DNA of 64,000 nucleotides from an uncultured bacterium (GCA_964527215.1 CAZGNZ010000001.1:193276-257275); one strand, 5' to 3'. Numbered from the stretch's first letter, positions 1 to 26,411 are shown. Numbers and translations are program-made. The notes: generated from the letters alone by a model not told the origin.

Positions 1-2385
1 TCTCAGAACTTCAATACGGTAGGTACCGGAATTCAGACTGTCAAACGCAAAAGCACCGTTTGCCTGTGTGAGAACAGAATCCAGCTGCTCATCGTCCAGA
101 TACAGTTTTACCAGCTGATCCGTTTCCTCAATCGGCTGGAGGTTCGCATCCGTCAGACGTCCGCTGATGGATCCGTAATTTACCCGGAACAAATCCGCTC
201 CCGGTTCAGAGAGGTCCACTGTCAGATCATGCTGTGAAGAAATGGGATCGTCAAAAATATCCTCTGTTGAATTCACAATCCGGTAGGTGTCCGTAAGCTG
301 AATGGGTATCAGATACTGACCATTTTCATCCGTTAACATACTCCAGACGGTTTCATCCGAAGAATTCAAGGTAACAGACAAGGCATCAGCCACAGGCGCA
401 TCATCTGCGAAATCCCAGACATCACCCACAATGGCTGCGGGATAAAACCAGACCGTGTCGGAATCGGATATGGTCTGCAGGTCACTCAGCCAGGTTGTGC
501 CGGTGACAATGGCAGGGATCATCTCCGTGCTGCTGACAACTGAGGTCAGTGGTGCGGCAGCCGTTCCGTTGAGTGTGGTTGTCAGGATTTCACTGGTTCC
601 GTTCTGGAACAGACCGGCATCAGCAGTGAGGATCACTTCTGTGCCGTCAGGTACCCGGTCACCGTTGACGTCCAGCACAAGTGCCTGCACATTCGTGATG
701 GAAATTCCGTCCGCGGGGATGTACTCGGGCTCTGCGGTCACCTGAATGGTTCGCGGAATGCCCGGTTGATTGATCAGCGTCACGGCATCATCGAACTCAT
801 GAACACCGGCGGCATTGGTAATATGCGCCACATTCAGGAGTTCCAGATTCAGGTCTGCGGTAACCAGAACCGATATGGTCAAAAGCTGACTGTCGCCTGG
901 ATTCACCTCACCCAGATTCCAGCTGACAATACCCAGATTTTCGGTTCCGCCTTCAGATGCTGATATGAACTGTGTTCCGTCAGGCAGCACATCGTGTATC
1001 AGTGTATTGGGTGAGGGATACTCGCTGGTGTTTTCGAGATAAACGGTATAATTCAGGGTATCGCCGGTGAAGGAATAACCCTTATCGACGTCTTTCACAA
1101 ACAGGAAATCGGAGAATACCTGTACCGCAGTCAGAGCACTGTCTGCAGCCTGAGGATTGTTATCGATACTGATCTGTGCCAGATTCAAAATTTCTGTGCC
1201 GGATACAGCTTCCGGATCCACCGCTGCAGTCACCATCAGGGTGTCACTGAATTGCGGCCACAGGAGATCGTAAGTCCATTGAATTACACCGGTTTCGGAT
1301 TGATAATTATAGGTTCCATCTGCATTCAGGAAATTCAGCTCATCAGGCAGACTGTCCGTGAGTACCGCATCGAAAATGGTCTCGCTGCCGGTATTGGATA
1401 CTATTATCTGATACTGAAGCGTATCCCCGGGCTGAACAAGTTCCTGATCAACCGATTTAACAAGATTAACATCCGTCATTGAATATGGGACGTGAATCTG
1501 GCAGACAGCCGAGTCGCTGTCGGAAATTCCTGATGCATTGGTAATGACCGCTCTGTTCAGCAGCTCGGTTCCGGAAGGAGGATTCCCCGTGATCCGGGTC
1601 ATGATTCGAACCGAATCAATGGTGCCCGGCTGAAGTGTGCCGAGATACCATGTGATCATGTTATCGGCTGGATTCCCGGGCGGAATCATTTCCAGCAGCT
1701 GCAGATTTGGCGGCAGATGGTCAATCAATAATGTATTTTCGCCGGCAGTATTGCCGTTATAATGATATTCAAGGGTATAGGTGAGCGTATCATTCGGAGC
1801 AGCAGTTGTCAAATCCACTGATTTCTCGATTTCAAACGCGGCGTAAACTCCCGATTCGTCAACAGTCAGATCAACCGGATTGCTTTCAGCCGCAAACCCG
1901 TCTTCAGTGGTTGCCACTGCGATATTGCTCAGAATTGAGAAGGGGGTGCTCTCCGACAGATAACATTCCAGACCGGCCTGCCAGGTATCGTCGGCAGGCA
2001 GATTTTCAATGGTCCAGGAGACCAGACTGCCATTCACTTCCGCTTCAGGATCGGCACTCAGATATGCCAGACCTTCCGGCAGGGTGTCCTGCACGGTCAC
2101 CCATTCCGCTGCAGCATTCCCGGAATTGTGAACGGTAATTGTATAGAGTACCGTATCACCGGGAACCGCATTTTCATACGGACTGGATTTTGTGATGATG
2201 AGATGAGGAGCAGTTGAAATATCCGTGATGACTGTATTGGTTGTATCTGTAGTGAATGTCAGTTCGTTGGCATCCATATACAATACGTACGCACGGTTGA
2301 CCAGCTGATCATCCCGATCGGTCTGTCCGAAAACGGCTGCAGGCAGCAGCAGTGTCAGGAATATTATGTGTCTTAAAATACGCAA
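1..2385 (-). CDS. Large DUF11-repeat envelope protein, N-terminal 795 aa only (C-terminus runs off the left edge); 'giant' member of module A
   Basis: It is absent from the ORF track because there is no stop codon in the window. My own minus-strand translation from TTG 2385..2383 gives LRILRHIIFLTLLLPAAVFGQ (signal peptide). DUF11-type units follow (APHLIITKSSPYENAVPGDTVLYTITVHNSGNAAAEWVTVQDTLPEGLAYLS...). Next come a Big-like unit (PEYIPADGISITNVQALVLDVNGDRVPDGTEVILTADAGLF, codon frame checked against the start) and CarboxypepD_reg-like units (...QANGAFAFDSLNSGTYRIEVL at the window edge). The domain order matches the N-terminus of the 2420-aa protein at 12020..19282. The start codon choice is uncertain. 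Confidence 0.75.
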   Translation of the reverse strand, partial: MRILRHIIFLTLLLPAAVFGQTDRDDQLVNRAYVLYMDANELTFTTDTTNTVITDISTAPHLIITKSSPYENAVPGDTVLYTITVHNSGNAAAEWVTVQDTLPEGLAYLSADPEAEVNGSLVSWTIENLPADDTWQAGLECYLSESTPFSILSNIAVATTEDGFAAESNPVDLTVDESGVYAAFEIEKSVDLTTAAPNDTLTYTLEYHYNGNTAGENTLLIDHLPPNLQLLEMIPPGNPADNMITWYLGTLQPGTIDSVRIMTRITGNPPSGTELLNRAVITNASGISDSDSAVCQIHVPYSMTDVNLVKSVDQELVQPGDTLQYQIIVSNTGSETIFDAVLTDSLPDELNFLNADGTYNYQSETGVIQWTYDLLWPQFSDTLMVTAAVDPEAVSGTEILNLAQISIDNNPQAADSALTAVQVFSDFLFVKDVDKGYSFTGDTLNYTVYLENTSEYPSPNTLIHDVLPDGTQFISASEGGTENLGIVSWNLGEVNPGDSQLLTISVLVTADLNLELLNVAHITNAAGVHEFDDAVTLINQPGIPRTIQVTAEPEYIPADGISITNVQALVLDVNGDRVPDGTEVILTADAGLFQNGTSEILTTTLNGTAAAPLTSVVSSTEMIPAIVTGTTWLSDLQTISDSDTVWFYPAAIVGDVWDFADDAPVADALSVTLNSSDETVWSMLTDENGQYLIPIQLTDTYRIVNSTEDIFDDPISSQHDLTVDLSEPGADLFRVNYGSISGRLTDANLQPIEETDQLVKLYLDDEQLDSVLTQANGAFAFDSLNSGTYRIEVLR

Positions 2386-2432
2386 CCTAATGTCCTTTGC
2401 GGCGCAGGTTAAGTCCGTTATTCAGTAAGTTG

Positions 2433-2464
2433 AAAAAGCAGCCGGGCCGGAGCGACCCGACTGC
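2433..2464 (-). terminator. Rho-independent terminator-like hairpin plus T-run after the type-2 subunit gene of module A
   Basis: The minus strand reads GCAGTCGGG-tcgctccgg-CCCGGCTGC followed directly by TTTTT. The stem is 9 bp with one mismatch. It lies between the stop of 2523..4247 and the start of the downstream giant gene. Confidence 0.55.
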
Positions 2465-2522
2465 AATCCAAATTAGAAAAGAAACTGTGTAACGGAGAAA
2501 AACCATTGCGCAGGTTCACCCC

Positions 2523-4247
2523 CTAATCAATCATCACCTGGAAAGTGACGAATGTCGTGCCGCTGGGTCCGATGGACGGAATGGTGAATGACGCTGTTCC
2601 GTTGGCAAAGGACGCGGTATCACCATCGCTGGCATCTGTTTTGGATACACCGGCAATGGTCAGGGTTCCGGCCTGGTAAGTGGCATTGTCCGGCACTGCA
2701 TCGGTGACCAGAACATTGGTCGCCATCCCGGTTCCGGCATTCAGCAAATCCACCCGATAGGTCAGAACCGTGCCTGGCGGCTGCGGTCCGGTGGGTGTCA
2801 CGGATTTGGAAAGGATCAGGTATGGTGCCGTTACTGTCACGGTAACCGTTCCGCTGTCGGATATTGCAGGGTCACCAACGGAGGTTGCCGTAATGAGTGC
2901 CTGCTCGACGGTGCCGTCGTTTGTTCCTGCCGGCACAGTGGCGGCGGCGATGATGCAGGCGGTGTCGCCGGCATCCAGTTCACCCAGATCAGGTATCCCG
3001 TCGTTATTGGTGTCCGTCAGCAGAACATCGTCAGCATCAATCACTCCGTTGCCGTTGAAGTCCCAGTAGAAGGTCCAGGTCCAGAAGTTGCTCACATACG
3101 TGATGTTGAAAACATCGGTCCCGTTACCATCATTGGTGAAACATACCGGATAGAGTATTTGGTCACCGGGGTCACCGACTGTGGTCAGATCATCACCGGC
3201 GGATACGTCAAAAAGCTGGTCAACGGTAACCGTACCGCCCTGATACTCTTCAGGCGGATAAGGATCACCTTCATCATTTTCAGTTTCAACGACGATATCT
3301 ATGGGAATATCCGATCCTTCCGGGACACCTTCATCTATGGTCACCTGGAAGAAAACACAGTAGTAGTCGCTCGGATTCATCTGACCCAGATTGATGGTTA
3401 CCGAATTCGGGCTGGAGATGCCGAAGTCACCCTGAGTGGATGGCGGGTATTCAACGCCGTCATCGGGATCGGTGAGGGGCAGTGCGCTTCCCGGATCGCT
3501 GGATGTCGAGTAACCCATGCTGCCCGCGACATACGTCATGCCGTCCGGAATTCCGGAGGTAAGCAGTGTGGTTTCATAAGCCGGTGCGGAACCGATATTT
3601 TCGGCACACACCGTAAACGTAACCACATCTCCCGGTATCGGGCTGGGGTTGTCATTGGAAATGGTGATGTCCATCACGGATCCGGCAATGGTTGTGGTCA
3701 GCGTGGAGCTGTCCGAAACCGTTCCGTCAAACTGCGAGACGGCAGTCACATCCGTAGAAACGACATCTCCGTCCGGAGCGCCGCCGGGTGTGATATCGGT
3801 CACCAGAACGATAATATCCAGGAAATCATCGGCGGCAAGCGGACCGGTCTCCGTAATGAGGCTGTCGAGGCCGTCAATGATGCCGTTTCCGTCGATATCC
3901 ACGTAGATTTCAATCTCATAAGAGCCGGTGCCAATGACGGTCGAGAGCTCAGACAGATCAAAACTGTCAGTGCCGTTACCCGTGTTGATAACATCCATGG
4001 GATATGCATGGCTGCCCTGGGGGCTCATGTTGCTGGCAGTCTGATCCGGTATGATGTCCACACCGGCAATCTGACTGACGATGGTGGTTACGGCATTGGA
4101 CTGAACCTGGGGCATGGCATTTCCGTTGGCATCATCGTAGTCACCATACGCAACGTTGGTGATTTCGGTGCCTGCCGGAGTGCCTGCAGCCATCAGGAAG
4201 CCAGCCGTAAGCAGCAGGAGCAGTGAAAATTGTTTTAATGTATTCAT
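2523..4247 (-). CDS. Secreted multi-domain DUF11 protein, 'type 2' subunit (module A)
   Basis: 574-aa ORF with signal peptide MNTLKQFSLLLLLTAGFLMAAG. The N-terminal block TPAGTEITNVAYGDYDDANGNAMPQVQSN is conserved. There are two NxGNGxDxF Ig-like units with DxDGNGxIDxxD Ca-loop motifs. The C-terminal DUF11 unit (PGTVLTYRVDLLNAGTGMATNVLVTDAVPDNATY...VTFQVMID) ends exactly at the C-terminus. It is a paralog of 19406..21127. Confidence 0.88.
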   Translation of the reverse strand: MNTLKQFSLLLLLTAGFLMAAGTPAGTEITNVAYGDYDDANGNAMPQVQSNAVTTIVSQIAGVDIIPDQTASNMSPQGSHAYPMDVINTGNGTDSFDLSELSTVIGTGSYEIEIYVDIDGNGIIDGLDSLITETGPLAADDFLDIIVLVTDITPGGAPDGDVVSTDVTAVSQFDGTVSDSSTLTTTIAGSVMDITISNDNPSPIPGDVVTFTVCAENIGSAPAYETTLLTSGIPDGMTYVAGSMGYSTSSDPGSALPLTDPDDGVEYPPSTQGDFGISSPNSVTINLGQMNPSDYYCVFFQVTIDEGVPEGSDIPIDIVVETENDEGDPYPPEEYQGGTVTVDQLFDVSAGDDLTTVGDPGDQILYPVCFTNDGNGTDVFNITYVSNFWTWTFYWDFNGNGVIDADDVLLTDTNNDGIPDLGELDAGDTACIIAAATVPAGTNDGTVEQALITATSVGDPAISDSGTVTVTVTAPYLILSKSVTPTGPQPPGTVLTYRVDLLNAGTGMATNVLVTDAVPDNATYQAGTLTIAGVSKTDASDGDTASFANGTASFTIPSIGPSGTTFVTFQVMID

Positions 4248-4257
4248 GGCTTGATTC

Positions 4258-5985
4258 CTAATCTATGGTTACCTGGAATGTAACATATGTTGAACCGCCG
4301 GAGCCGAGTGTGGGAATATCAAAAATGACTGAATCATTTGAGAATGTTCCGTTGTCTCCGTCAGCGGCATCGGTTTTTGCAATACCGGCCACGGAAAGTG
4401 ATCCGGCAACGTAGGTGCAGTTTGTGGGAATGGCATCCGTAATCAGCACGCCAGTGGCCTGGCCGGTACCGGCGTTTATGACATCCACGCGGTAAGTCAG
4501 AACCGTGCCCGGAGGCTGATTCCCGGTGGGGGTCACCATCTTGCTGAGTGTCAGATAGGGAGCAGTCGCCGTAATGGTGGCCGTACCAGAAGTAGTGACT
4601 GTCGGGTCGCCAACGGATGTGGCGGTAACCGTCATTACATCACTGGTGCCGTCATTGGTGCCGGCGGGAACCGTGGTCATGCCGATAATGCAGACAGTTT
4701 CATCCTGACCCAGTGAACCAATGTCAATGATTCCGTCGTTAATGGTATCGGTAAGCTCAGTATCATCCGGATCTATGACACCGTTTCCGTTCTGATCAAA
4801 ATAGAATGTCCATGACCAGAAATTGCTGGTGTAGCTGATATTGAAGATGTCGTCGCCGTTACCGTCATTGGTAAAGCAGATGGGATAGAGCACGTCATCA
4901 CTGGGATCTGCGAAGTAAACTTCGTCACCGGTGGAACTGACGGCATATACCTGCTGCACCACAGCGGGTGTACTGGTATAGTTGCCGGAAGGATACGGTG
5001 TGCCTTCACTGTTATCAAATCCGACTGTGACATCGGCTTCAATGACGGTACCTTCCGGTGTGTCTTCGTCCACAACGACCTGATAGAATACACAGCCTGA
5101 TTCGCCGGGAGCGGCATCACCCCATACAATGGTTACCTGACCGGCGTTGGTCACATTGAAGTCACCTTCGGTCAGAGGGGGATATTCCACACCGTCGTCA
5201 GGATCGGTAAGCGGGCTGGCGTTGGCATAGTCGTCCGTACTGTACACAGCCATGCTGCCGGGGACGTAGGAGGAGTTCGCGGGGATTTCACCAATAATGG
5301 TGACACCGTACGAGATTGCACTTCCAGTATTGGAACCGCAGACCGAGAACGTAATCACGTCGCCGGGTTCCGGGGTGGTTGTGCTGGGTTCAACGGATAC
5401 AGCCAGTACCGCTGCTGCAATGGTATGGTCGGCTTCGGAATTGTCACTGACCGTTTCATCAAACTGGGAAGTGGCAATCAGGTTGGTGTACACATTGTCA
5501 CCATCCGGTGCGCCGCCAGGAGTGGTATCTTCAATCCGGTATATCAGATTCAGTTCCTCGTCAGCCGCCATGTTGGGGGTAACCGTGATGAGGCTGTCCA
5601 GACCGTCAATGATGCCGTTACCGTCGATATCATGCCAGAGGGTGATGTCAAAGGTTCCGGTTCCGGTGATTTCCGATTCCAGAGTCAGATCAAATGCATC
5701 GTCACAGTTGCCGGTGTTGGTCAACGTGATGAATGACAGGTGCACGGCCTGAGTGGGAATCGTGTTGGAGTGATAGTCGGGGTTCAAATCCACACCAGCC
5801 ACCTGGCTGACGATTGTGGATACCACGTTGGACTGAACCTGAGGCATAGCGTTGCCGTTGGCGTCATCGTAGTCACCGTAAGCAACATTTGTGATTTCCG
5901 TTCCACACGGGGTTCCGGCTGCCAGTACCAGACTTCCCATAACGGCAATCAAAGTTACAATTGAGCTAAAACGCAATGGTTTCAT
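4258..5985 (-). CDS. Secreted multi-domain DUF11 protein, 'type 1' subunit (module A)
   Basis: The ORF track gives 4258..6150. I place the start at ATG 5985, because AGAAAGGAGACTGAG precedes it and it yields the signal peptide MKPLRFSSIVTLIAVMGSLVLAAG. The architecture matches 2523..4247 but has extra Cys residues (GTPCGT, NTGNCDD). Its closest paralog is 21141..22868. Confidence 0.88.
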   Translation of the reverse strand: MKPLRFSSIVTLIAVMGSLVLAAGTPCGTEITNVAYGDYDDANGNAMPQVQSNVVSTIVSQVAGVDLNPDYHSNTIPTQAVHLSFITLTNTGNCDDAFDLTLESEITGTGTFDITLWHDIDGNGIIDGLDSLITVTPNMAADEELNLIYRIEDTTPGGAPDGDNVYTNLIATSQFDETVSDNSEADHTIAAAVLAVSVEPSTTTPEPGDVITFSVCGSNTGSAISYGVTIIGEIPANSSYVPGSMAVYSTDDYANASPLTDPDDGVEYPPLTEGDFNVTNAGQVTIVWGDAAPGESGCVFYQVVVDEDTPEGTVIEADVTVGFDNSEGTPYPSGNYTSTPAVVQQVYAVSSTGDEVYFADPSDDVLYPICFTNDGNGDDIFNISYTSNFWSWTFYFDQNGNGVIDPDDTELTDTINDGIIDIGSLGQDETVCIIGMTTVPAGTNDGTSDVMTVTATSVGDPTVTTSGTATITATAPYLTLSKMVTPTGNQPPGTVLTYRVDVINAGTGQATGVLITDAIPTNCTYVAGSLSVAGIAKTDAADGDNGTFSNDSVIFDIPTLGSGGSTYVTFQVTID

Positions 5986-6314
5986 CTCAGTCTCCTTTCT
6001 GTTTTGGGTTCTATTTGGATTGATCCATTTCTGGATCCTTGTGTTGAAATCGCTTGGAATTCGGCGAATTCCATCACTCTCTGTTATACTTCGTATAACA
6101 GAGAGTGTGTTTTGATGATTTTTAAATTTGTTCAATGGATTCAGTTTCATTGAGTCTGAAGCCGCCTCAGCATACTGAAGCAGCTTAATGATTGTATTAT
6201 TATGGTTTACCTATTTCAGATTTAGGATATACTACCTTGTTTGTCAGTGCGTCCAGACATTAGAAAACAGTTCCGGCATTATCATGTTTGGTCATAAAGG
6301 CTTGTTTCAGGCCA

Positions 6315-6779
6315 TTATCGGATCACCGCCAGAAACGTCACTTCCCGGGATTCGCCAGGAGCAAGAATATCCTGTATTTCCCATCGGATATGGGTGATGT
6401 CTTCAACGGGAGCCGGTTTCTCGACCACTTCACCGTTCTCATCGGTGACCAGTTTTACCGGCGGCCATTCCTGGAAATAATTGCCCTGGTCGAGCGAAAA
6501 TGTGATAACGGCCGGATCACCCGTCACGGATTGAGGCACATACACCACTCCCGGAGGAATGGGATCCACAATGGTGGGCTCACGCATTTCATCATCACCC
6601 ACATTGCTTGCTGTTATGATGTACCGCAGGGTATCCCCGGGAGAAAAAGTGAGTTCGCCGCCGCTGAGCTCCTGGGGGGTTTTATTCACTTTTTCCGGGG
6701 TGACGTCCAAATTCAGCAGAGGCCCCTGCTGTCCGAGCAGCCACCCAATACAAATGAAAAATATTATATAGTATCGCAT
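6315..6779 (-). CDS. Small secreted single-DUF11-domain protein (module A)
   Basis: The ORF runs 6315..6803. The preferred start is ATG 6779, preceded by GAGGAGG-tatc, giving the signal peptide MRYYIIFFICIGWLLGQQ. It has one DUF11-type unit (LTFSPGDTLRYIITASNVGDDEMREPTIVDPIPPGVVY...REVTFLAVIR). It is a paralog of 22986..23477. Confidence 0.82.
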   Translation of the reverse strand: MRYYIIFFICIGWLLGQQGPLLNLDVTPEKVNKTPQELSGGELTFSPGDTLRYIITASNVGDDEMREPTIVDPIPPGVVYVPQSVTGDPAVITFSLDQGNYFQEWPPVKLVTDENGEVVEKPAPVEDITHIRWEIQDILAPGESREVTFLAVIR

Positions 6780-6795
6780 GATACCTCCTCGTTCG

Positions 6796-8286
6796 TTAAT
6801 CAAGTCTTACCTTAAATGTGACCGTCTCGCCGGAACCTGCAGGCAGGGAAGTGCCGCGCTGAAACTGAATATTGGTTATCGGCGGGGTCTGGCTGGAATC
6901 ATAGTTGAATCCGCCGTCATGGCTGAACTGAATGGTCATCAGATTCCCTTCAGCCGAATTGGTTACATAAGTTGTATTCTCCGGAATGGTCTCATGAATC
7001 ATAACAAAACTGCTGAAGTCATCCCCTGAATTCAGATAGTGAATACTGTACAGAATGGTATCTCCAGGTGCGGCCTGACTCTGGTCCACAACCTTGGTTA
7101 AAGACAGCACCGGACTGATGACCTGTACCGCTGCGGTTTCTCCGGTAGAAATGATATCGAAATTGGAACCGTAAACAGAAACATTGTTGAAGTAGGATCC
7201 TCTCTGAAGACCCACATTGGCCTGAAAACTCAAGGTTGTTTCCGTGTCCGCATCCAGTGTGAAGTCTTCATCCCAGATAAGTTCATTGCCTTCGATGACA
7301 GGATCCTGTATCTGACTGCCTGACGATGAACCCGGGATATATGTGAACGGCAGCGGGAGGTAGTCGATGATGCCGGAAATGTCGGCCGGACCGTTACCCG
7401 TATTTGAAATCGTAATCGAATACTCGGTGACTCCACCGCTGCTGACAGTGGCGGGAGAAACCGACTTGGTGATGCTGATTTCCGGTTCCGGGTCTCCGAA
7501 GAATATGACATTTCCCAAGTCATAAAATGTAACGGGCGGATTATTCAGCAGCGTCAGACTGGCATCCAGCTGGTTGATCAGATACAGGCTTCCCGGAAAG
7601 AACCAAAATCCCAGTGAACTCCCGTATAAATCCCCTTCAAAAGTATAAGCCAGTCCCGTCAGACTGACGCCGCAGTCACCAATGAAGTTTGCTTCAAGGT
7701 CATTCAAATTGACGGTATAGAGATTACCGCTGGAAATAATGTAGAAATCATTCACGGTATAAAAATCAATATCACCGGAGTTGGCCGTGAAATCCGCTCC
7801 GGTGAGAGTACCGAAATACGTGACGGATCCGGTGACGGGATCTATTTCGTATAAGTCATTGGTATTCAGACGTGTACCAAACAGGCGGCCGTCCAGTGAA
7901 AATTCCATGCGCGGTGAAATTGCAAAACCAACATCACTGTTAATGATGGTGGTGATTTGGGTTTCCGTGTCAAAATACCCAACTCTGTAAGGTGAGGAAT
8001 TACTCGTGAAATACAAATTACCGGTGCCCGGCTGCGTACCCAATGCGTAACTGGCGAAGGCCGCATTTCCGACAAAAGTATATTCATCCGTGATCGTATC
8101 GTAGGCATAGATGGAGTAGGGGGAGTTTGCACTGATTCCGTACACCGTGCTGGCAGCCGCCCAATCCGGAAAGTGTATGGCGAAAACAGTCAGTATAAAG
8201 AGGGTGCGGCCAACACACCTCATAACGGAACCGCCTGCTCCGGAAATTGCAGCTTTGATTCTTTGAATTGCGTTACTGTCAATCAT
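6796..8286 (-). CDS. Secreted protein: beta-propeller-like N-terminal 'head' plus two C-terminal DUF11 domains (module A)
   Basis: 496-aa ORF. The signal peptide is best from internal M22 (MRCVGRTLFILTVFAIHFPDWAAA, ATG 8223), so the start is uncertain. The N-terminal ~270 aa has repeated ..LY.I/V....G.. strands. The C-terminal ~220 aa aligns by eye with the C-terminus of 23474..26029 (PGDTILYSIHYLNSGDDFSSFVMIHETIPENTTY vs PGDTLNYTIHYSNIGDDYASLVLIHESIPENTHY). Confidence 0.82.
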   Translation of the reverse strand: MIDSNAIQRIKAAISGAGGSVMRCVGRTLFILTVFAIHFPDWAAASTVYGISANSPYSIYAYDTITDEYTFVGNAAFASYALGTQPGTGNLYFTSNSSPYRVGYFDTETQITTIINSDVGFAISPRMEFSLDGRLFGTRLNTNDLYEIDPVTGSVTYFGTLTGADFTANSGDIDFYTVNDFYIISSGNLYTVNLNDLEANFIGDCGVSLTGLAYTFEGDLYGSSLGFWFFPGSLYLINQLDASLTLLNNPPVTFYDLGNVIFFGDPEPEISITKSVSPATVSSGGVTEYSITISNTGNGPADISGIIDYLPLPFTYIPGSSSGSQIQDPVIEGNELIWDEDFTLDADTETTLSFQANVGLQRGSYFNNVSVYGSNFDIISTGETAAVQVISPVLSLTKVVDQSQAAPGDTILYSIHYLNSGDDFSSFVMIHETIPENTTYVTNSAEGNLMTIQFSHDGGFNYDSSQTPPITNIQFQRGTSLPAGSGETVTFKVRLD

Positions 8287-8316: not shown

Positions 8317-8333
8317 TACAAAAACAGTGCCCA
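8317..8333 (-). promoter_or_regulatory. Weak sigma-54-like -24/-12 element upstream of module A
   Basis: The minus strand reads TGGGCAC-TGTTT-TTGTAT. GGCAC and TTG have the consensus spacing of TGGCACG-N4-TTGCW, but the -12 element reads GT instead of GC. It lies 20-30 nt upstream of ATG 8286. Confidence 0.3.
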
Positions 8334-8871
8334 ATGATAATTAGAAATCTTACACGGTGCAGAACAGTCGCGATGTAAATTTTCAGGTCAATATTTAAAG
8401 GGACTGTGCCAAAATGAAACATGTTTTCCAATTCAGCAGAGATGGGTTTATTCGGTGTTTGTGATCTGCACTGTGAAATTAAATTAAGAGAACTTAATTG
8501 AAATGGTGATGGACGATTTCTCACCATGTGCTTCGTCAGCCTTTGGATTGATTTCATGATATGAAACCAAATACAGATTTCAGTCAGTCTCGGCTGTGCA
8601 ATCCAACATGGCAAACTCTGATGGCATCCGGATGATGTCGTAAAAAGCCTTTATTTATTCTGCGTACAACCGGAACTTGAAATCTGAAAATCGAATTATA
8701 GAATTTGATCGTATGATCGTTCACATAACCTATTTAAATACGACCGAGATATCCAATATTTTTTGAAACGAATTTGCATACTGTCTGGCTGTATTGTGGA
8801 TCAGTAGACAATTCATTTCATTCAGATACCTCTCTTGTTTCCGAGCGTCAATGGGATAGACACGCTGCCGA

Positions 8872-8904
8872 AAAAACCCATAAACCCGCCGTTGAAGACG
8901 GGTT
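8872..8904 (-). terminator. Possible weak terminator after the 1024-aa barrel gene
   Basis: The minus strand reads AACCCG-tcttcaacgg-CGGGTT, then TATGGG and TTTTTT. The stem is short (6 bp) and the T-run is offset by 6 nt, so support is weak. Confidence 0.3.
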
Positions 8905-19282: not shown

Positions 19283-19318
19283 ATATGCCGGAGATTCATC
19301 AAAACTGAATTCTTGAAT

Positions 19319-19352: not shown

Positions 19353-19405
19353 AATAACCAAGAAAATAAAGACAGTTTCAGTTTCGATGACTCAAGTCAC
19401 CGATC

Positions 19406-21127
19406 TTAGTCGATGGTTACCTGGAAAGTAACGTACGTCGAACCGCCAGCGCCCAGAGAAGGAATCGTGAACTGAGCGGTATTATTGGAGAACGTACCGC
19501 TGTCACCGTCGGCAGCATCGGTTTTGGCAACCCCTGCCAGTGACAGAGAACCGGCAACGTAAGTGGTGTTGGCCGGAATCGGATCGGTGATTACAACCTG
19601 AGTGGCCTGACCGGTTCCGATGTTCATGATATCTACCTGATAAGTCAGGACCGTTCCCGGAGGCTGGGGACCTTCCGGAGTCACGGATTTGACCAGGGAC
19701 AATGAAGGTGCGGTCACGGTCACAACCATTTCACCGGAATCACTGACAGCAGGATTACCGACGGAAGTTGCGGTGACAGAAATGACTTCTTCCGTGCCGT
19801 CGTTCGTACCGGCAGGAACGGTTGTCAGCGCGATAATGCACACCGTTTCATCGGCTGCAAGGGACCCCAGATCAATGATACCGTCATTGTTGGTGTCGGT
19901 TAACAAGATGTCATCCGGATCAATGGTACCGTTGCCGTTGAAATCCCAGTAGAAAGTCCACAGCCAGAAATTGCTGACATACGAAATGTTAAATATATCG
20001 TCGCCGTTACCGTCATTGGTGAAACAGAGACTGTATGTCACTTCATCACCCGGATCAGCGAATGCCAGATCATCATCGCCTGCGGTCACGCCGTAAACCT
20101 GTCCCACAACCATTGGTCCGCCGGTAATTTCTTCCGGAGGAAGCGGTGAACCTTCAGGATTTTCAGTTTCAACCGTGACATCAACCGGAATGGTTGTGCC
20201 TTCGGGCACGCCGTCATTCACAACTACCTGATAGAAAACACAGTATTCTTCCTGAGGTGCGATATCACCGAGAAAGAAAGTCGCAGAGTTGGCATTGGTG
20301 ACATTGAAGTCGCCTGCAAATTCAACCGGATATTCCACACCGTCGTCAGCATCCGTCAGAGGATTGGAATTGGGATAGTCATTGCTGGTGTAGAAAGCCA
20401 TGGTTTCAGGTGCATAGGTTGTATTGTCCGGAATGAATCCGATCAGTGAAGTATTGAAGCCAATCGCTGAACCGGTATTTTCCGTACATACCGAAATAGT
20501 GACGGTACCGCCGGGAAGCGGATTTTCATCATCCAGCGTGATTTCAGTTTCCATTACCGCTGTTGAGACGGTCGTGGTCAGGTTTGAGCTGTCGGATACC
20601 TGATCATCAAACTGGGAAACAGCCGTTACCGCAGTCTGAATCACGGTGCCGTTGTCAGCTCCGCCGTCGGTGGTATCTGTGATTTTGATGATGATGTCCA
20701 GTGACTCATCCGCGGCAAGGAGGCCGGTATCCGTGATAATGGCATCGTTGCCGTCGATAATACCGTTGCCGTTTTCATCCAGATAGATTTCCACATCAAA
20801 TTCGCCTGCACCCGTAATCTGCGAGATTTGACTCAGATCGAATACATCATCTCCGTTACCGGTATTCACCACATCCATGGGATACAGTTTAACACCGCCG
20901 GCTGCGATGTTTGAGGATGTCTGGTCCGGAATGAGATCCACACCGGCAACCTGACTGACGATTGTGGTGACAACATTGGAAGTTACCTGCGCCAGGGAGT
21001 TTCCGTTGGCGTCTTTATAGTTGCCGTAAGCAACGTTGGTGATGCTGGTACCGGCAGGCGTACCGGCTGCAAAGACCAAACTCATGGCCAGTGCTGTGAC
21101 GATTAATATAATTGAATTTCTTTTCAT
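19406..21127 (-). CDS. Secreted multi-domain DUF11 protein, 'type 2' subunit (module B)
   Basis: 573-aa ORF with signal peptide MKRNSIILIVTALAMSLVFAAG and GGAG upstream of the ATG. TPAGTSITNVAYGNYKDANGN... is collinear with 2523..4247 over the full length. The C-terminus is ...GSTYVTFQVTID. Confidence 0.88.
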   Translation of the reverse strand: MKRNSIILIVTALAMSLVFAAGTPAGTSITNVAYGNYKDANGNSLAQVTSNVVTTIVSQVAGVDLIPDQTSSNIAAGGVKLYPMDVVNTGNGDDVFDLSQISQITGAGEFDVEIYLDENGNGIIDGNDAIITDTGLLAADESLDIIIKITDTTDGGADNGTVIQTAVTAVSQFDDQVSDSSNLTTTVSTAVMETEITLDDENPLPGGTVTISVCTENTGSAIGFNTSLIGFIPDNTTYAPETMAFYTSNDYPNSNPLTDADDGVEYPVEFAGDFNVTNANSATFFLGDIAPQEEYCVFYQVVVNDGVPEGTTIPVDVTVETENPEGSPLPPEEITGGPMVVGQVYGVTAGDDDLAFADPGDEVTYSLCFTNDGNGDDIFNISYVSNFWLWTFYWDFNGNGTIDPDDILLTDTNNDGIIDLGSLAADETVCIIALTTVPAGTNDGTEEVISVTATSVGNPAVSDSGEMVVTVTAPSLSLVKSVTPEGPQPPGTVLTYQVDIMNIGTGQATQVVITDPIPANTTYVAGSLSLAGVAKTDAADGDSGTFSNNTAQFTIPSLGAGGSTYVTFQVTID

Positions 21128-21140
21128 TGCTCCAGTTTCC

Positions 21141-22868
21141 TTAGTTAATGACTACTTGAAAGGTTATGTATGTTGACCCGCCGGGGCCCATTGTCGGGAT
21201 TTGAAACTCCACCTGATTGCTGGAAAAAGTTCCGCTGTCTCCGTCGGCGGCATCTGTTTTGGCAACCCCGGCTACAGTCATACTGCCCGATATGTAAGTG
21301 GTGTGGGCAGGAACTGCGTCCGTAATGACCACGTCGGTTGCCTGACCTGTACCGGCATTCAGAACATCTACTCTGTATGTCAGCACAGTTCCGGGAGGCT
21401 GTTCTCCTTCCGGTGTCACGGATTTGTTAAGACTCAGAATTGGGGCCGTTACGGTGGTCGTAATGGTACCCGAGTCTGAAACAGTGTCGTCAAAAACGGA
21501 TGTTGCCGTTACCGTCATCACATCCACCGTCCCGTCATTGGTGCCGGCCGGGATGGCACTGGTGCCGATAATGCAGACCGTTTCGTCCTGATCCAGAGTA
21601 CCCAGATCGATAACACCGTCGGAATTGGTGTCTGTCAGCTCGGTATCGTCCGGATCGATGTTTCCGTTTCCGTTTGAATCAAAATAGAAAGTCCAGGACC
21701 AGAAGTTGCTGACATATGAAATGTTGAATACGTCTTCACCGTTTCCTGTGTTGGTGAAACAGATACTGTACGTCACTTCATCACCAGGATCAGCGACTGC
21801 GGTATCATCATCACCCGCTTCGACTCCGGCGAACTGATCAACAATGGAAGGATCACCATGATAGGTACCCGGTGGGTAGGGTGTCCCCTCGCCGTTTTCA
21901 AATGTCACATCTACTTCCGGCTGGATGGTGGTTCCGGCAGGTGTGCCGTCAACAACCACAACCTGATAGAAAACACAGCCTTCATCCATCGGAGCGGCAT
22001 CTCCCCAAACAACTGTGACCAGATCCGCATTGGTAACATTGAAATCACCTTCTGTGGCCGGGGGGTATTCCACCCCGTCATCTGCATCAGTCAGAGGATT
22101 GGCATTGGCAAACTCATCCGTCGGATAGTAACCGAGAGTACCCGGTACATATGTTGTATTTTCCGGGATTTCTCCGATGAAGGTGAGGTCGTAGGAGGTT
22201 GCAGACCCCGTGTTTTCAAAGCAGACTGAATATGTGATTGTCTCACCCGGCAGCGGACTGACGTCACTTGGCGTGACGGTGACATCCAGCACTGAAGCGG
22301 CCACGGTGTGATCCGTATCTGCCGTGTCAGTTACCGTGTCATCAAACTCTGATACGGCCGTGATCACCGAAGCGACATTGGCACCGTCAGGTGCTCCGCC
22401 GTTCGTGATATCCGTGATCAGGTATATCAGATCAAGCTCTTCATCAGCCGCCATCTCGGGGGTGATGGCAATCGGGGCGTCCAATCCGTCAATAACACCG
22501 TTTCCATTTATATCGTGATACAGTTCCACTGTAAAGGAAGCATCACCGGTAATGGTGGTGTTCACGGAAAGGGTGAACTGGTCGTTGCAGTTTCCAGTGT
22601 TTGTCAATGTCAGGGATGACAAATGAGTTGACTGGGTCGGGATGGTGTTTGACAGCAATGCAGGATGCAGGTCAACACCGGCGACCTGACTGACCGTCGT
22701 AGTAACCGTGTTGGATGTAACCTGGGCCAGGGAATTGCCGTTGGCATCCTTGTAATCCCCATAGGCTACATTTGTGATGGTTGTTCCGCAGGGGGTCCCG
22801 GCACCGAATGCCGTCGACCACAGCAGAACTGTCATCAATATTCCAGTATTAAAGCGTAGTAGCTTCAC
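21141..22868 (-). CDS. Secreted multi-domain DUF11 protein, 'type 1' subunit (module B)
   Basis: The ORF track gives 21141..22976. I place the start at GTG 22868, because AGAAAGGAGACAGTT precedes it (same RBS and spacing as paralog 4258..5985). This gives VKLLRFNTGILMTVLLWSTAFGAG. It shares the type-1 Cys pattern (GTPCGT, NTGNCND). Confidence 0.85.
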   Translation of the reverse strand: MKLLRFNTGILMTVLLWSTAFGAGTPCGTTITNVAYGDYKDANGNSLAQVTSNTVTTTVSQVAGVDLHPALLSNTIPTQSTHLSSLTLTNTGNCNDQFTLSVNTTITGDASFTVELYHDINGNGVIDGLDAPIAITPEMAADEELDLIYLITDITNGGAPDGANVASVITAVSEFDDTVTDTADTDHTVAASVLDVTVTPSDVSPLPGETITYSVCFENTGSATSYDLTFIGEIPENTTYVPGTLGYYPTDEFANANPLTDADDGVEYPPATEGDFNVTNADLVTVVWGDAAPMDEGCVFYQVVVVDGTPAGTTIQPEVDVTFENGEGTPYPPGTYHGDPSIVDQFAGVEAGDDDTAVADPGDEVTYSICFTNTGNGEDVFNISYVSNFWSWTFYFDSNGNGNIDPDDTELTDTNSDGVIDLGTLDQDETVCIIGTSAIPAGTNDGTVDVMTVTATSVFDDTVSDSGTITTTVTAPILSLNKSVTPEGEQPPGTVLTYRVDVLNAGTGQATDVVITDAVPAHTTYISGSMTVAGVAKTDAADGDSGTFSSNQVEFQIPTMGPGGSTYITFQVVIN

Positions 22869-22985
22869 AACTGTCTCCTTTCTTCTATCTTCTTGGTTTT
22901 TCGCATCTAATTGCGAGTGCCCGCAGTGTTTACGGCGGACATTGGTTTTTCTGAAGTTTTGTATTTTGGTTAACATTGATATTCT

Positions 22986-23477
22986 CTATTTAATGACTGC
23001 CAGAAATGTGTACTCACGTGATTCTCCCGGTTCCAGATCGGACAGAATCTGCCAGCGAATATGCGTGACGTCCTTTGCCTCTGCCGGTATTTCGACGGGA
23101 TTTCCGTTCTCATCAAGCTTGATTTTTGTTGGTGGCCATTCCTGAAATCTGCTGCCGTCGATACTGAAAGTGACGTCAGCATCATCAAAGGAGGCGGTTT
23201 CGGCGATGTACGCCACACCTTCCGGCAGAGGATCCACCACAGCCGCTTCAGTCATCAGCGCATCACCGATATTGGCTGCAGAAATCGTGTAGCGCAGTGT
23301 GTCCCCAGGTGAAAATGTGAGTTCGCCGCTTTCCTGCTCCTGCGGCGTTTTGCTGAGTTTTTCAGGGGTTATCTGAATGGATAATTCCGGCTGCGCAAGC
23401 AGCAGGCCCATGCAGACTGTCAGCAGTATTGGGAATTGAATTGTTTTCACTGGTTGCTCCATTGTAGGTATTGTCAT
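22986..23477 (-). CDS. Small secreted single-DUF11-domain protein (module B)
   Basis: 163-aa ORF with a hydrophobic N-terminus (FPILLTVCMGLLLAQP). LTFSPGDTLRYTISAANIGDALMTEAAVVDPLPEGVAY...REYTFLAVIK is paralogous to 6315..6779. ATGA start/stop overlap with the upstream gene. The exact start (23477 or 23462) is uncertain. Confidence 0.8.
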   Translation of the reverse strand: MTIPTMEQPVKTIQFPILLTVCMGLLLAQPELSIQITPEKLSKTPQEQESGELTFSPGDTLRYTISAANIGDALMTEAAVVDPLPEGVAYIAETASFDDADVTFSIDGSRFQEWPPTKIKLDENGNPVEIPAEAKDVTHIRWQILSDLEPGESREYTFLAVIK

Positions 23478-26029
23478 TGAATAATAACTTTAAATTCAAC
23501 TGTTTGTGATTCACCATCCAGTAACGGTACTGTCCGCATGAACTGCAGATGCGTGATGTTTTCGTTTTCATTGCCTGAGTATGTAAAACCGCCGTCGGCG
23601 CTGTAGGTGACGGTCATGTATTCACCGGCCGAGGATCCGGGCAGATAATGGGTGTTTTCCGGAATGCTTTCATGGATGAGAACCAGGCTGGCATAGTCAT
23701 CGCCGATATTGCTGTAATGGATGGTATAATTAAGGGTATCTCCCGGCACCGCAAGCTCATGATCCACTTCCTTGATCAGGGTCAGAAGGGGACCGAGCAC
23801 CTGCACCGGTGCCGTTGATCCCGTAGTAACCGGATCGAAATTGTCTCCGTCTGCCTGTGCCGAATTGGTGTAGGTTCCGCGATCCAGACCGACATTCACG
23901 TTGAATGACAAATAGCCGGGATCGGGTGCGCTGCTGCTGAGATTCCAGCTGCCCGACCATGTCAGAACATTATCCGATATTGTCGGATCATCACTGGTCA
24001 GACCTGATGAGGTCCCGGGAACATAGGAGAATTGTACCGGCAGGATGTCCGCGATTTCCGTGACATTGGCTGTTCCGGTGCCAATATTTTGAACCGCAAT
24101 GGTGTATGCCATTACGGAACCGGAACTGATGGAGTCCGCTGCCGCCGTCTTTTGTATATAAATCTGCGGATCAGATGATATCAGGGTTTCTACCGGATCA
24201 CTGATGAGGAATTCTGAATCCGATTCAAGGAAGGCAGTGTTGATGATGACCGAACTGTCCGGCAGACCGTCGGCAGTTTCCACCGTCAGAGTAACAGTGC
24301 CCGGAGTATCGGGAGCTACCTCACCCAGCAGCCAGGTGACGGTGTGAAGCCCGATGTCGTAAAAGCCGTTATCGCTGGCGCTGACAAAGCTGACATCGTT
24401 TGAGAGTGTATCCGTGACAACGACATTCTGCGCCCGGTCGGATCCCTCGTTGGAAAACTGCAGTGCATACTCGATGGAAGCCCCCGGTTCACTGAGCGCC
24501 GGTCCCGATTTATTGATGAACATTGATGCCGCGGAGGATATCTCGGTTTCAGCAGACCCTTCGCCTGCAGCCCCCTCGAAGGATATCAGCTCGACTTCGT
24601 TTTGGATGACTGTTCCGTCCGGAATAACCGCGTCGGTCTGAACGGTTAGAACCAGCTGAACTGTTTCTCCGGCCTCTATGGAGCTGATCGTCCAGGTGAC
24701 CTCATGACTGCCGCTGCTGTAGGATCCATTGTCCGATGCGCTGACAAACTGCAGATAATCAGACAGTTCATCAGTCACGACGATACCGGTGCCAACTGCG
24801 CTTCCGAAGTTGGTGATGGTAACCGCATAGGTAATTTCTTCACCGGCATCTGCACTGGGCGGGGCACTTTTCGCAACCCAAAATGCGGGCATGGCATTGA
24901 TGGACGTGGTGGTGTAGTCGGAGTCAGTGACATCCTCACTGCAGGTGATTTCCGCAGTATTGGTGATCAGTGTTCCATCCGAAACAAACGGGGAAATGCC
25001 CACTGTCAGGGTCAGGGTGTCGATTTCTCCAGGCTGCAGCGTACCGACAGACCAGGAAATCTCCTCCGACCAGACATCGTAACTTCCATTGTGGGATGCT
25101 GAGATGAAATAGGTTTCAAACGGCAGGTGATCTGTTACAACCACATTTGTGGCCGCGTCGTTTCCGATATTCGAAATCACCAGCTGATAATCCAGATGGC
25201 AGATGTCGCCGTTCCAGTCGTCGTCGTCATCATCGTCATCATCGTCGTCATCGTCGTCACCCCAGCCGCCGTCATCTCCGCCATAATCCGGGTCCCAGTC
25301 ATCAAGATCACCCAGATAGCAGTCGCAGTCGCTGTAGGGGATGTCATCATCATCGTCATCGTCGTCATCCCCGCCTTCATCGTCGTCATCATCATCCCCG
25401 CCTTCATCATCGTCATCGTCGTCGTCACCCCATCCGTCGTCATTGTCCCCGCCTTCGAAATCAAAATCATCTGATCCGCCGCTGCAGACATTGAGAAACA
25501 ACTCTGAAAGTTTGTCTATCACCAGCACCGGATCAGATTCCACTGTGGTAAGGCAGGTCGCGGATTCGCTGAGTCCGCTGTCTCCGACTGCCAGAATTTC
25601 ATTGCTCAGTTCCGTATTGTTCTGCAGCGGGGATGCAACCTGGGTCACAATCGTTAGAGTATCTGAGGAAAGAGGAAGCAGTTCATTGAAATTCCAACTG
25701 ACTGAATGGGTTTGAGAATCATAACTGCCGCCGGTGGAATTGATGTAAGTCACATCAAGCGGCAGCAGGTCAGACATCAGCACGCCGGCAGCGGACTCAT
25801 CGCACGGATTTGTGAGTGTCACCGTGTAATTCAGGTATTCTCCGGCTTCCACGGATTCCGGAGCGGTCACAGCGAGTGAAACGTGACAGTCAGGATTCTC
25901 GGAAAACAGGAATTTGACAGACAATAGCAGCACCGCTGCCGCAATAAACAGGCGGATGGCCGAGCGCTTTGAGGCGTTCGAGCCGTCGAATGAAAACGGG
26001 GAATCAGTTTGCGGTTTCAAGTGGTGCAT
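23474..26029 (-). CDS. Secreted multi-DUF11 protein with an internal poly-Asp insert (variable 'head' protein of module B)
   Basis: The ORF track gives 23474..26152. I prefer ATG 26029 (MHHLKPQTD...AIRLFIAAAVLLLSVKFLF), because the longer version overlaps the upstream gene by 107 nt. It has at least six DUF11-type units (e.g. AGEEITYAVTITNFGSAVGTGIVVTDELSDYLQFVS). The C-terminal ~220 aa is homologous to 6796..8286. Confidence 0.85.
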   Translation of the reverse strand: MHHLKPQTDSPFSFDGSNASKRSAIRLFIAAAVLLLSVKFLFSENPDCHVSLAVTAPESVEAGEYLNYTVTLTNPCDESAAGVLMSDLLPLDVTYINSTGGSYDSQTHSVSWNFNELLPLSSDTLTIVTQVASPLQNNTELSNEILAVGDSGLSESATCLTTVESDPVLVIDKLSELFLNVCSGGSDDFDFEGGDNDDGWGDDDDDDDEGGDDDDDDEGGDDDDDDDDDIPYSDCDCYLGDLDDWDPDYGGDDGGWGDDDDDDDDDDDDDDWNGDICHLDYQLVISNIGNDAATNVVVTDHLPFETYFISASHNGSYDVWSEEISWSVGTLQPGEIDTLTLTVGISPFVSDGTLITNTAEITCSEDVTDSDYTTTSINAMPAFWVAKSAPPSADAGEEITYAVTITNFGSAVGTGIVVTDELSDYLQFVSASDNGSYSSGSHEVTWTISSIEAGETVQLVLTVQTDAVIPDGTVIQNEVELISFEGAAGEGSAETEISSAASMFINKSGPALSEPGASIEYALQFSNEGSDRAQNVVVTDTLSNDVSFVSASDNGFYDIGLHTVTWLLGEVAPDTPGTVTLTVETADGLPDSSVIINTAFLESDSEFLISDPVETLISSDPQIYIQKTAAADSISSGSVMAYTIAVQNIGTGTANVTEIADILPVQFSYVPGTSSGLTSDDPTISDNVLTWSGSWNLSSSAPDPGYLSFNVNVGLDRGTYTNSAQADGDNFDPVTTGSTAPVQVLGPLLTLIKEVDHELAVPGDTLNYTIHYSNIGDDYASLVLIHESIPENTHYLPGSSAGEYMTVTYSADGGFTYSGNENENITHLQFMRTVPLLDGESQTVEFKVIIQ
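25215..25475 (-). repeat. Low-complexity GAY-codon tract encoding a ~85-aa poly-Asp/Gly/Trp insert
   Basis: It encodes GGSDDFDFEGGDNDDGWGDDDDDDDEGGDDDDDDEGGDDDDDDDDDIPYSDCDCYLGDLDDWDPDYGGDDGGWGDDDDDDDDDDDDDDWNGD inside one DUF11 unit. The + strand shows runs of gtcgtc/atcatc. Confidence 0.9.
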
Positions 26030-26045
26030 TCTGTCTGTGAATTCG

Positions 26046-26411
26046 TCAGCCGGCAAGACTTTTTGTGGATTGAGATTTGTTGATTGCAGCAAGTTCTTCC
26101 AGGCGATACGGAATTGTCGCAGTGTTGAAATCACCAGAACGAATGGTTTCAATCACATCAAGCAATTCATCATTTGCCATAAGCACCAGCTGTAACTTTC
26201 GATGAAACTTGTTGATGTATTTCACGAGGGCAAAATCACGCAGCGTTGAAACCATCAGGAGTACGGTATGAACAGATCGTGATTCAAGAATCTGGATCGC
26301 TTTTTCCAAATTGTCAGCCTCATAAACGGTGTCCGCCAGTGACATCGCCATCATTCCGTCCAGAATGCTGCTGCTGGCAAAACGACTGTGAGAAACAATT
26401 AAAACACCCAT
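26046..26411 (-). CDS. Degenerate (pseudo-)receiver-domain protein, first gene of module B
   Basis: 121-aa ORF with GGAG 5 nt upstream of the ATG. It has a CheY-like alternating pattern (VLIVSHS...TVLLMVST...LQLVLMAND...). By-eye alignment to CheY puts SH at the acidic pair, M/V at the phospho-Asp, A at the conserved T/S, and no conserved Lys. Confidence 0.6.
   Translation of the reverse strand: MGVLIVSHSRFASSSILDGMMAMSLADTVYEADNLEKAIQILESRSVHTVLLMVSTLRDFALVKYINKFHRKLQLVLMANDELLDVIETIRSGDFNTATIPYRLEELAAINKSQSTKSLAG

Follow-up and report, generated by a model that had tools for sequence, protein, structure and literature searches.

What do two tandem sets of exported proteins, most of them carrying the domain DUF11, build in the envelope of an uncultured bacterium? 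The question is raised by positions 1-26411 of a stretch of 64,000 nucleotides (nt) of DNA (GCA_964527215.1 CAZGNZ010000001.1:193276-257275), which was analysed as a whole and is referred to below as the window. Its minus strand carries two gene modules, A and B, each with the same order: a head protein, a small protein, a type-1 and a type-2 subunit, a giant protein with OmpA domains, and a barrel protein. We consider it rather probable that each module specifies a surface fibre that assembles without a chaperone, by donor-strand complementation of a split DUF11 domain. An initial annotation of this DNA had suspected an undescribed fibre- or pilus-like envelope system, and that suspicion is supported by conserved synteny and by the failure to match any characterised system.

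Calling of open reading frames (ORFs) within 1-26411 found minus-strand ORFs at all 12 predicted coordinates (Table 1), and together with domain scans it agrees with the two same-order paralogous modules described before. Every translated ORF of the locus has a signal-peptide-like start except the receiver-like ORF, which is present, as are all others listed earlier for module B, and which lies outside the repeated unit. The initial annotation had also proposed extending the sequence leftward past module A. In public assemblies the module A giant continues beyond the window edge to 2647 amino acids (aa) with OmpA domains, and is followed after 3 nt by its own 1030-aa barrel; the locus therefore comprises two complete six-gene operons. 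The barrel at 8946-12020 is not shared between the modules but is part of B alone. The block duplication claimed earlier stands, with a unit of six genes, barrel included, in place of the five first supposed. DUF11 in the form of TIGR01451 exceeds its cut-off in all locus proteins but the barrel and the receiver-like protein, and PF01345 is passed by the same proteins except small A (23.4 bits against a cut-off of 24.6). In this sense the proteins are indeed DUF11 proteins, although the description of almost all of them as built from DUF11 units does not extend to types 1 and 2: there only the C-terminal domain reaches the Pfam DUF11 threshold, and the remainder is all-beta according to AlphaFold2 (AF2), whose model of type-2 B shows five all-beta domains. 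Dockerin-like 'DxNGNGxIDxxD' loops are also present in the type-1 and type-2 subunits.

DUF11 has recently been renamed CLIPPER, and its crystal structure is that of a CnaA-like immunoglobulin (Ig) domain (PMC12617251). In the solved domain (PDB 9IFR), Lys715 and Asn806 form an isopeptide bond and Asp748 is catalytic (PMC12617251). We built a family hidden Markov model (HMM) of 120 positions from 142 complete CLIPPER domains taken from the interior of the giants and heads of these loci; its consensus K7, D41 and N97 corresponds to K715, D748 and N806 of PDB 9IFR. Internal CLIPPER domains of giants and heads reach positions ~115-120 of this model. The C-terminal domains of types 1 and 2 align to positions 1-86 and end there, at the last residue before the stop codon, and the Pfam DUF11 model is likewise matched over 2-84 of its 114 positions, ending at the protein's last residue. 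Conservation in these subunits (62 homologues) is highest at their mature N-terminus, 'AGTPAGTxITNxAxGxYxDANGN...V.SN.V.T.V', as in 'AGTPAGTEITNVAYGDY..SNAVTTIVS' of type-2 A, and this segment resembles the missing CLIPPER strands, 'pdGT.I.N.A.v....sN.v.t.V'. An HMM of the segment matches the mature N-termini of both giants (independent E-values 2e-4 and 4e-3), the end of an internal domain of type-1 and, with weak scores, complete CLIPPER domains at their ends. In the AF2 subunit model the N-terminal segment is a confidently structured hairpin, with a predicted local distance difference test score (pLDDT) of 77-90.

The two halves were also joined in silico. Adding the 38-aa mature N-terminus to the truncated subunit domain raised the family HMM score by 14-15 bits and extended the match to position 105-107, compared with +1.0 +/- 1.7 bits (maximum +5.9) for 20 shuffled segments; head C-termini gained 6-12 bits from the N-terminal segment. 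In an alignment of 53 homologues with 34-63% identity, N31 of the segment and K480 and D515 of the C-terminal domain are invariant, and head and small proteins retain in their acceptor domains the Lys together with an Asp or Glu. At the level of sequence, then, head, small, type-1 and type-2 proteins are shown to end where a CLIPPER domain still needs its last two strands, and a matching hairpin stands at the N-termini of types 1 and 2 and of the giants; as judged from the alignments, the triad Asn of the terminal domains comes from the N-terminal segment. Sequence tests thus support a split Ig domain, and its completion between molecules is what we infer from them.

The way in which donor and acceptor halves are distributed bears directly on whether such completion takes place within or between proteins. 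Type-1 and type-2 subunits possess both an N-terminal donor and a truncated C-terminal acceptor. Giants possess the donor, which lies at residues ~20-65 in 34 related loci, and their C-terminus is free of CLIPPER domains; heads and small proteins possess a truncated acceptor, with the donor motif found by motif search in no head or small protein of the related loci. All heads and small proteins in ~60 loci finish with the same truncated strand, '..G..g.v.F.V.[IV]x'. Since their acceptors come without a donor, heads and small proteins cannot complete themselves, and the donors of the giants, which come without an acceptor, have no partner in their own molecule; complementation within a molecule would therefore not explain the pattern, and complementation between proteins would. 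Homology places the small protein with the C-terminal acceptor of the heads and not with that of the subunits (a search for its homologues gave only 5 matches, being limited by the word index), and in our reading it is a tip or cap that lacks a head.

This distribution speaks against the explanation that the locus encodes separate monomeric envelope proteins, which we regard as unlikely. The giant would then be a CLIPPER-stalk adhesin and the barrel an OmpM/SlpA-like tether between outer membrane and peptidoglycan, or a porin, and the type-1/2 hairpin would complete its own C-terminal domain by circular permutation or belong to domain 1. Such an arrangement would draw on a described adhesin architecture, a CLIPPER stalk with an OmpA-like anchor (A. 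silvestris B9T28_05395, PMC12617251), and it would agree with the high confidence that AF2 gives the hairpin within a monomer. It would leave unexplained why heads and small proteins have a truncated domain with conserved Lys and acid and no hairpin, why giants have the hairpin and no truncated domain, and why the hairpin is the most conserved segment, with an invariant Asn. The giants do resemble the CLIPPER-stalk adhesins (Costa et al. 2025, PMC12617251) in their tandem CLIPPER stalk and OmpA-like anchor, and their internal CLIPPER domains carry an intramolecular triad, as in those adhesins. However, the description of those adhesins is of monomers that carry their adhesive domain at the N-terminus (PMC12617251), whereas the giants begin with a donor hairpin, are linked to a barrel by coupling or by fusion, and occur together with acceptor-bearing partners.

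We therefore return to the fibre, for which the following assembly route can be proposed. After Sec export, a tip-type acceptor (the head or the headless small protein) would enter the barrel. Type-1 and type-2 shaft subunits would then join from the periplasmic side, each inserting its N-terminal hairpin into the open C-terminal domain of the preceding subunit, which would yield a linear chain from tip through shaft to a giant base. The giant, which in most lineages would be the barrel's own N-terminal stalk, would be added last; because it has a donor without an acceptor it would terminate the chain, and it would thread the lumen. The fibre would be tied to peptidoglycan through the OmpA or SPOR domains of the giant or of the fusion protein. 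The barrel would be usher-like in its role, with periplasmic Ig domains, and would serve as a conduit first for the subunits and then for the stalk of the giant. Export through the barrel and the surface location are assumed in this scheme, and the gene order runs parallel to the proposed polarity, from tip to base. Each rebuilt domain would unite the Lys and Asp of the acceptor with the Asn of the donor, so that a Lys-Asn isopeptide bond could form spontaneously, requiring neither sortase nor chaperone. Because the CLIPPER triad is retained in full across the two halves, Lys and Asp in the acceptor and Asn in the donor, such a lock is a serious candidate; that the junctions are in fact fixed covalently by intermolecular isopeptide bonds we hold to be nearly an even question, leaning slightly to the negative. 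The split-domain junction would then be a natural counterpart of a Tag/Catcher pair.

The same subunits could alternatively form a two-dimensional, sheath- or S-layer-like coat, with types 1 and 2 as lattice subunits and the giant and barrel as anchors to outer membrane and peptidoglycan. The subunits are mid-size, all-beta and multi-domain, their genes are duplicated, the giant and the barrel are anchor-like, and the barrel is weakly similar to the S-layer-associated SlpA. Yet one donor and one acceptor per subunit would give linear polymers and not lattices, dedicated tip-type and base-type proteins suit a polar fibre, and the locus proteins gave neither matches to SLH or S-layer families nor any sign of lateral contacts. 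A coat consequently appears improbable to us.

The AF2 model of the barrel protein, made with 40 homologues (pLDDT 79.6), has Ig-like domains at ~27-213 followed, according to DSSP, by ~35-40 long beta-strands up to the C-terminus, from which we infer a very large outer-membrane barrel. The most conserved motifs of the family sit in a small inserted beta-domain (residues ~383-466), which could act as a plug. No Pfam or NCBIfam model matches the barrel, and a profile search against the PDB matches only its N-terminal Ig domains. Searches of the barrel and type-2 sequences against PDB chains gave no matches or Ig-domain matches only. A fold search with the barrel model found nothing close (template modelling (TM) score <= 0.28), the best weak matches being SlpA, MtrB, LptD, SprA and FimD; the type-2 model retrieved only generic Ig arrays (TM <= 0.28). 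That SlpA, MtrB and LptD are among the best fold matches might favour a monomeric tether or porin, although the TM scores to SlpA and MtrB are only 0.2-0.28.

In order to see how far the arrangement extends, we scanned 185,579 species-representative genomes, one per species, and found barrel relatives at 428 genome loci. ORFs were called in the best 80 of the 428 and classified against the window proteins: in ~60 of the 80, a head, a small protein, one subunit, an OmpA giant and a barrel are co-directional, with giant and barrel genes overlapping or abutting. These loci lie in Marinimicrobia, Ignavibacteriota/Bacteroidota and KSB1. Full-length barrel relatives share 40-48% identity in Marinimicrobia and ~33% in metagenome-assembled genomes (MAGs) of Ignavibacteriota/Bacteroidota, and from the names of the closest homologues we judge the host genome to be Marinimicrobia-like. 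The proteins are thus not dispersed, as they might have been if the initial annotation had been mistaken, and so strict a five-part synteny across phyla is unexpected for unrelated adhesins. A variant is seen in Ignavibacteriota/Bacteroidota MAGs (L057, L069, L070, L080-L082, L084), in which a lone subunit-like gene of 580-670 aa stands directly 5' of the barrel, no OmpA giant is present, and large CLIPPER genes sometimes lie 3' of the barrel.

Gene fusions add to the synteny. An exhaustive search with the barrel profile returned representatives of 5,778 clusters at E <= 0.001, of which 2,631 remain at E <= 1e-30. Most of the latter are proteins of 1.6-2.5 kaa with the architecture donor-stalk-(OmpA or SPOR)-barrel, the barrel being C-terminal. 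The fusions include stalk-barrel (Sphingomonadales), stalk-OmpA-barrel (Latescibacterota), stalk-SPOR-barrel and barrel-OmpA proteins, some of them thus with SPOR in place of OmpA. Among 106 long fusions from other phyla, the donor motif lies in the N-terminal 100 residues in 55, and many others show it by eye. The cultured Erythrobacter sp. KY5 has an operon with the same set of parts (CP021912, 1813846-1824102): subunits of 327 and 393 aa with a 162-aa small protein between them, then a giant-barrel fusion of 1739 aa and a 752-aa head. Because fusions join them, giant, barrel and peptidoglycan binding would form one functional unit; the fusions that unite the barrel with OmpA or SPOR also look tether-like, as separate monomeric proteins would lead one to expect. 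We tentatively suggest, at somewhat less than an even chance, that these loci represent a widespread and unrecognised class of diderm pili with enzyme-free Lys-Asn ligation, in which each fibre would be exported, ended and anchored by one barrel of ~35-40 strands, itself frequently joined to the base subunit and to a module that binds peptidoglycan.

Could the locus instead be a diverged member of a known pathway, such as chaperone-usher, type V secretion (autotransporters), type V pili, type IX secretion system (T9SS) cargo or sortase pili? Some features would suit such an origin: the logic of chaperone-usher pili is shared (tip first, donor strand, terminator, barrel), the fusions have the passenger-then-barrel order of autotransporters, and FimD is among the weak fold matches (TM 0.19-0.23). 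We nevertheless hold it to be very improbable. Usher, PapD, Autotransporter, POTRA, FimA/Mfa, Por_Secre_tail and sortase matches are missing from every locus protein, as are LPXTG motifs and lipoboxes, the barrel profile finds only the N-terminal Ig domains in the PDB, and the barrel is far above 12-24 strands. The Pfam and NCBIfam scans of the locus proteins thereby bear out the earlier impression that no chaperone, usher, sortase, T9SS or type V pilin signature is present; a clear match to a characterised system, which would have told against that annotation, did not emerge from Pfam, NCBIfam or PDB sequence and fold searches.

Each class was also examined on its own terms. For a chaperone-usher pilus, the barrel lacks PF00577 (Pfam, NCBIfam and PDB profile searches) and neither module has a PapD-like ORF. 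For a sortase pilus, the proteins end in '..TFQVTID' without a sorting signal, and no sortase was found in the window. Type V secretion is set aside by the lack of Autotransporter, ShlB, IAT or POTRA Pfam matches and by ~35-40 barrel strands against 12-16; the sole type-V-related match, to Big_1/Invasin_D3 in the giants, stays under the cut-off. No lipobox Cys stands at the cleavage site and no FimA/Mfa family match was obtained, as a type V pilus would demand, and T9SS cargo is countered by the absence of matches to either Por_Secre_tail or CHU_C and by C-termini that are truncated CLIPPER domains.

The comparison with known fibres is instructive all the same. Like chaperone-usher pili (type 1, P, Csu), the proposed fibre would complete an incomplete Ig fold with the N-terminal donor of the next subunit, and would have a donor-less tip, a terminator or anchor, growth at the base, tip-to-base gene order and, in the same operon, a barrel of the outer membrane that has periplasmic domains as well as an inserted one. 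It differs in having no PapD-like chaperone and no Usher-family barrel, in a donor that is a two-strand CLIPPER hairpin and not a single G strand, in 575-aa five-domain subunits, in a 2,400-aa peptidoglycan-bound base, in the possible covalent lock, and in a barrel of ~35-40 strands compared with 24. Archaeal threads (Saci_0406; PMC9715654) share chaperone-free, head-to-tail donor-strand complementation, proposed inter-subunit isopeptide bonds and an adjacent cap-like partner. In the threads, however, Asn57 is linked to the N-terminal amine of subunit n+2 within a type-I-pilin-like fold (PMC9715654), whereas here a Lys/Asp/Asn triad would be split across subunits n and n+1, in a diderm bacterium whose fibre would have a barrel in the outer membrane and be anchored to peptidoglycan. 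Judged by sequence and model comparisons, the system would be homologous neither to chaperone-usher pili nor to archaeal threads, though alike in its working.

Sortase-assembled Gram-positive pili likewise use CnaA/CnaB-type Ig domains, Lys-Asn/Asp isopeptide chemistry, tip, shaft and base pilins, and covalently linked subunits. They differ from the present system, which is that of a diderm with OmpA anchoring, has no sortase or LPXTG motif, and would form its link autocatalytically in the reconstituted domain. SpyTag/SpyCatcher is an engineered pair, of which the split-domain ligation proposed here would be the natural equivalent. The type V pili of Bacteroidia (FimA/Mfa) resemble the system in strand-exchange polymerisation, in tip, shaft and anchor proteins, and in a host of the Fibrobacteres-Chlorobi-Bacteroidetes (FCB) group; their subunits are lipoproteins, proteolytically matured, that donate a C-terminal strand, unlike the locus proteins with no lipobox and no FimA-family match.

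Several observations weigh against a donor-strand fibre and should be set beside the evidence above. The N-termini of the window giants add only ~2 bits in the local chimera test, and for the small protein the test was defeated by insertions. With Pfam DUF11 the chimera gain was +0.2 to +2.9 bits and a reversed control was similar in coverage; only the DUF7619 score rose (5-9 bits) in this Pfam-based test, which was superseded by the family HMM with shuffled controls. Two acceptor-only proteins per operon are not accounted for by a single linear chain, and the barrel has no significant similarity to ushers. Nor are sigma-54-like boxes of the kind placed before the two modules (Table 1) enriched in the window, with 21 found and 33 expected.

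How old is the arrangement? Matching genes of A and B are paralogous position by position, as had been claimed, with aa identities of 65% (type-1), 61% (type-2), 56% (small), 46% (C-terminal part of the head) and 37% (giant, collinear over 2433 aa). DNA identity between the paralogs is 60-68%, close to the two thirds estimated by eye. In neighbour-joining trees of barrel and subunit, orthologues of other organisms fall inside the A and B clades, which indicates that both duplications are old and that the type-1/type-2 split preceded the block duplication; an old and maintained duplication had already been proposed. Type-1 donors carry a Cys ('GTPCGT') in the place where type-2 donors have Ala ('GTPAGT'). 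Because this difference is conserved in an orthologous pair of another organism (P0125/P0122), it suggests that type-1 and type-2 hold different positions in the fibre.

The coordinates of the locus and its surroundings are collected in Table 1. The TAGTG and ATGA overlaps reported earlier are both real. They amount to translational coupling of giant with barrel and of head with small protein, and the stoichiometric co-expression once read from them and from the short spacers would go beyond what they show. The OmpA domain (PF00691) scores 139 bits in giant B, in two stretches, and is present in giant A too; SdrD_B is also among the giant B domains (Pfam/NCBIfam). In head B, a tract of ~100 aa, nearly all Asp and Gly, breaks up the CLIPPER repeats and may bind cations. 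The receiver-like protein shows weak similarity to the NtrC N-terminus, and by eye both the phospho-acceptor Asp and the conserved Lys are missing.

Table 1. Positions of the genes, domain halves and neighbouring features (window coordinates; residue numbers where stated).
Feature	Position	Strand	Remarks
Giant A	1..2385	-	N-terminal 795 aa, rest beyond window edge; signal peptide, donor hairpin ~2209-2313, 4 complete CLIPPER, Big_1, CarboxypepD_reg
Type-2 subunit A, 574 aa	2523..4247	-	donor hairpin 4074-4187; truncated C-terminal CLIPPER acceptor 2526-2825
Type-1 subunit A, 575 aa	4258..5985	-	donor hairpin 5806-5919; truncated acceptor 4261-4560
Small A/type-1 A spacer	5986-6314	-	~330 nt, against 117 nt in module B
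Small A, 154 aa	6315..6779	-	single truncated CLIPPER, head-C-terminal subtype; donor motif not found
Head A, 496 or 475 aa	6796..8286	-	variable DUF6923-like N-terminal part, 1 complete CLIPPER
Head A acceptor	6799-7116	-	truncated C-terminal CLIPPER; donor motif not found
Sigma-54-like -24/-12 box GGGCAC-N5-TTGTA	8317..8332	-	~31 nt upstream of head A; weak lead
Terminator-like GC hairpin with T-run	~8871-8904	-	directly after barrel B stop
Barrel B, 1024 aa	8946..12020	-	signal peptide, two Ig-like domains, predicted very large beta-barrel
Giant B/barrel B overlap	12020	-	TAGTG
Giant B, 2420 aa	12020..19282	-	donor hairpin 19103-19201; 6 complete CLIPPER, Big_1, 4 CarboxypepD_reg stretches
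Giant B OmpA peptidoglycan-binding domains	residues ~1540-1660 and ~1950-2060		no C-terminal acceptor
Type-2 subunit B, 573 aa	19406..21127	-	donor 20954-21067 (Asn31); acceptor 19409-19708 (Lys480, Asp515)
Type-1 subunit B, 575 aa	21141..22868	-	donor 22689-22802; acceptor 21144-21443
Small B, 163 aa	22986..23477	-	acceptor only; start overlaps head B stop
Head B/small B overlap	23474-23477	-	ATGA
Head B, 851 aa from MHHLK start	23474..26029	-	ORF reaches 26152; 5 complete CLIPPER, poly-Asp/Gly tract
Head B acceptor	23477-23794	-	truncated C-terminal CLIPPER; donor motif not found
Head B Asp/Gly tract	~24900-25500	-
Receiver-like ORF, 121 aa	26046..26411	-	first gene of module B transcription unit
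Sigma-54-like -24/-12 box CGGCAA-N5-TTGCA	26452..26467	-	41 nt upstream of receiver-like gene
NtrC-type sigma-54 activator	26994-28376	-	directly upstream of locus
PAS histidine kinase	28377-29882	-	directly upstream of locus
GH26 mannanase-like gene	30126-31361	-	flanks locus
GWxTD-domain protein	39396-40805	+	flanks locus
Gingipain-like C25 peptidases (two) and GH43-like protein	43826-47374, 53193-56105, 58328-61225	+	each ends in a type I dockerin domain
tmRNA gene	63199-63556	-	Rfam RF00023, 181 bits

As regards regulation, the terminator-like hairpin and a 660-nt spacer separate modules B and A, and the hairpin would split them into two transcription units. The activator and the kinase encoded directly upstream probably control expression of the locus. 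The two sigma-54-like boxes are suggestive by position only, a lead and not a result. An internal promoter from which the shaft genes are transcribed may lie in the long spacer that separates small A from type-1 A; Rfam found nothing within the locus, this spacer included. Outside the locus, the window carries a tmRNA gene near its end, and the genes flanking the locus would suit an FCB-group bacterium that lives by degrading particles. The window gave no cohesin match, and that the dockerin-bearing enzymes dock on the fibre is pure speculation.

Full-text literature searches met only the CLIPPER domain paper and analogous archaeal and Gram-positive systems, and no account of this operon, of its barrel family or of a split domain was found. 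Since the hallmarks of the known classes that we looked for were also absent, we take the system to be new as a class of fibre, with a mechanism that rests on sequence inference. Its presence in culturable Erythrobacter and Rhizorhabdus makes the proposal directly testable. If it is true, the operon would place one more class of bacterial surface fibre beside the chaperone-usher, type IV, type V, curli and sortase-assembled ones, and would bring covalent, sortase-free pilus polymerisation to Gram-negative bacteria. It would define a family of very large outer-membrane barrels that is without a Pfam or NCBIfam model, and would offer protein engineering natural, mutually specific tag/catcher pairs of tip, shaft and base types. 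Altogether, the species-representative genomes searched, 185,579 in number, include at least 428 with the family, which also makes up thousands of protein clusters and spans several phyla, its hosts including abundant uncultured ocean and sediment lineages as well as cultured Sphingomonadales; the proposed assembly would explain how giant OmpA-anchored CLIPPER adhesins get to the cell surface.

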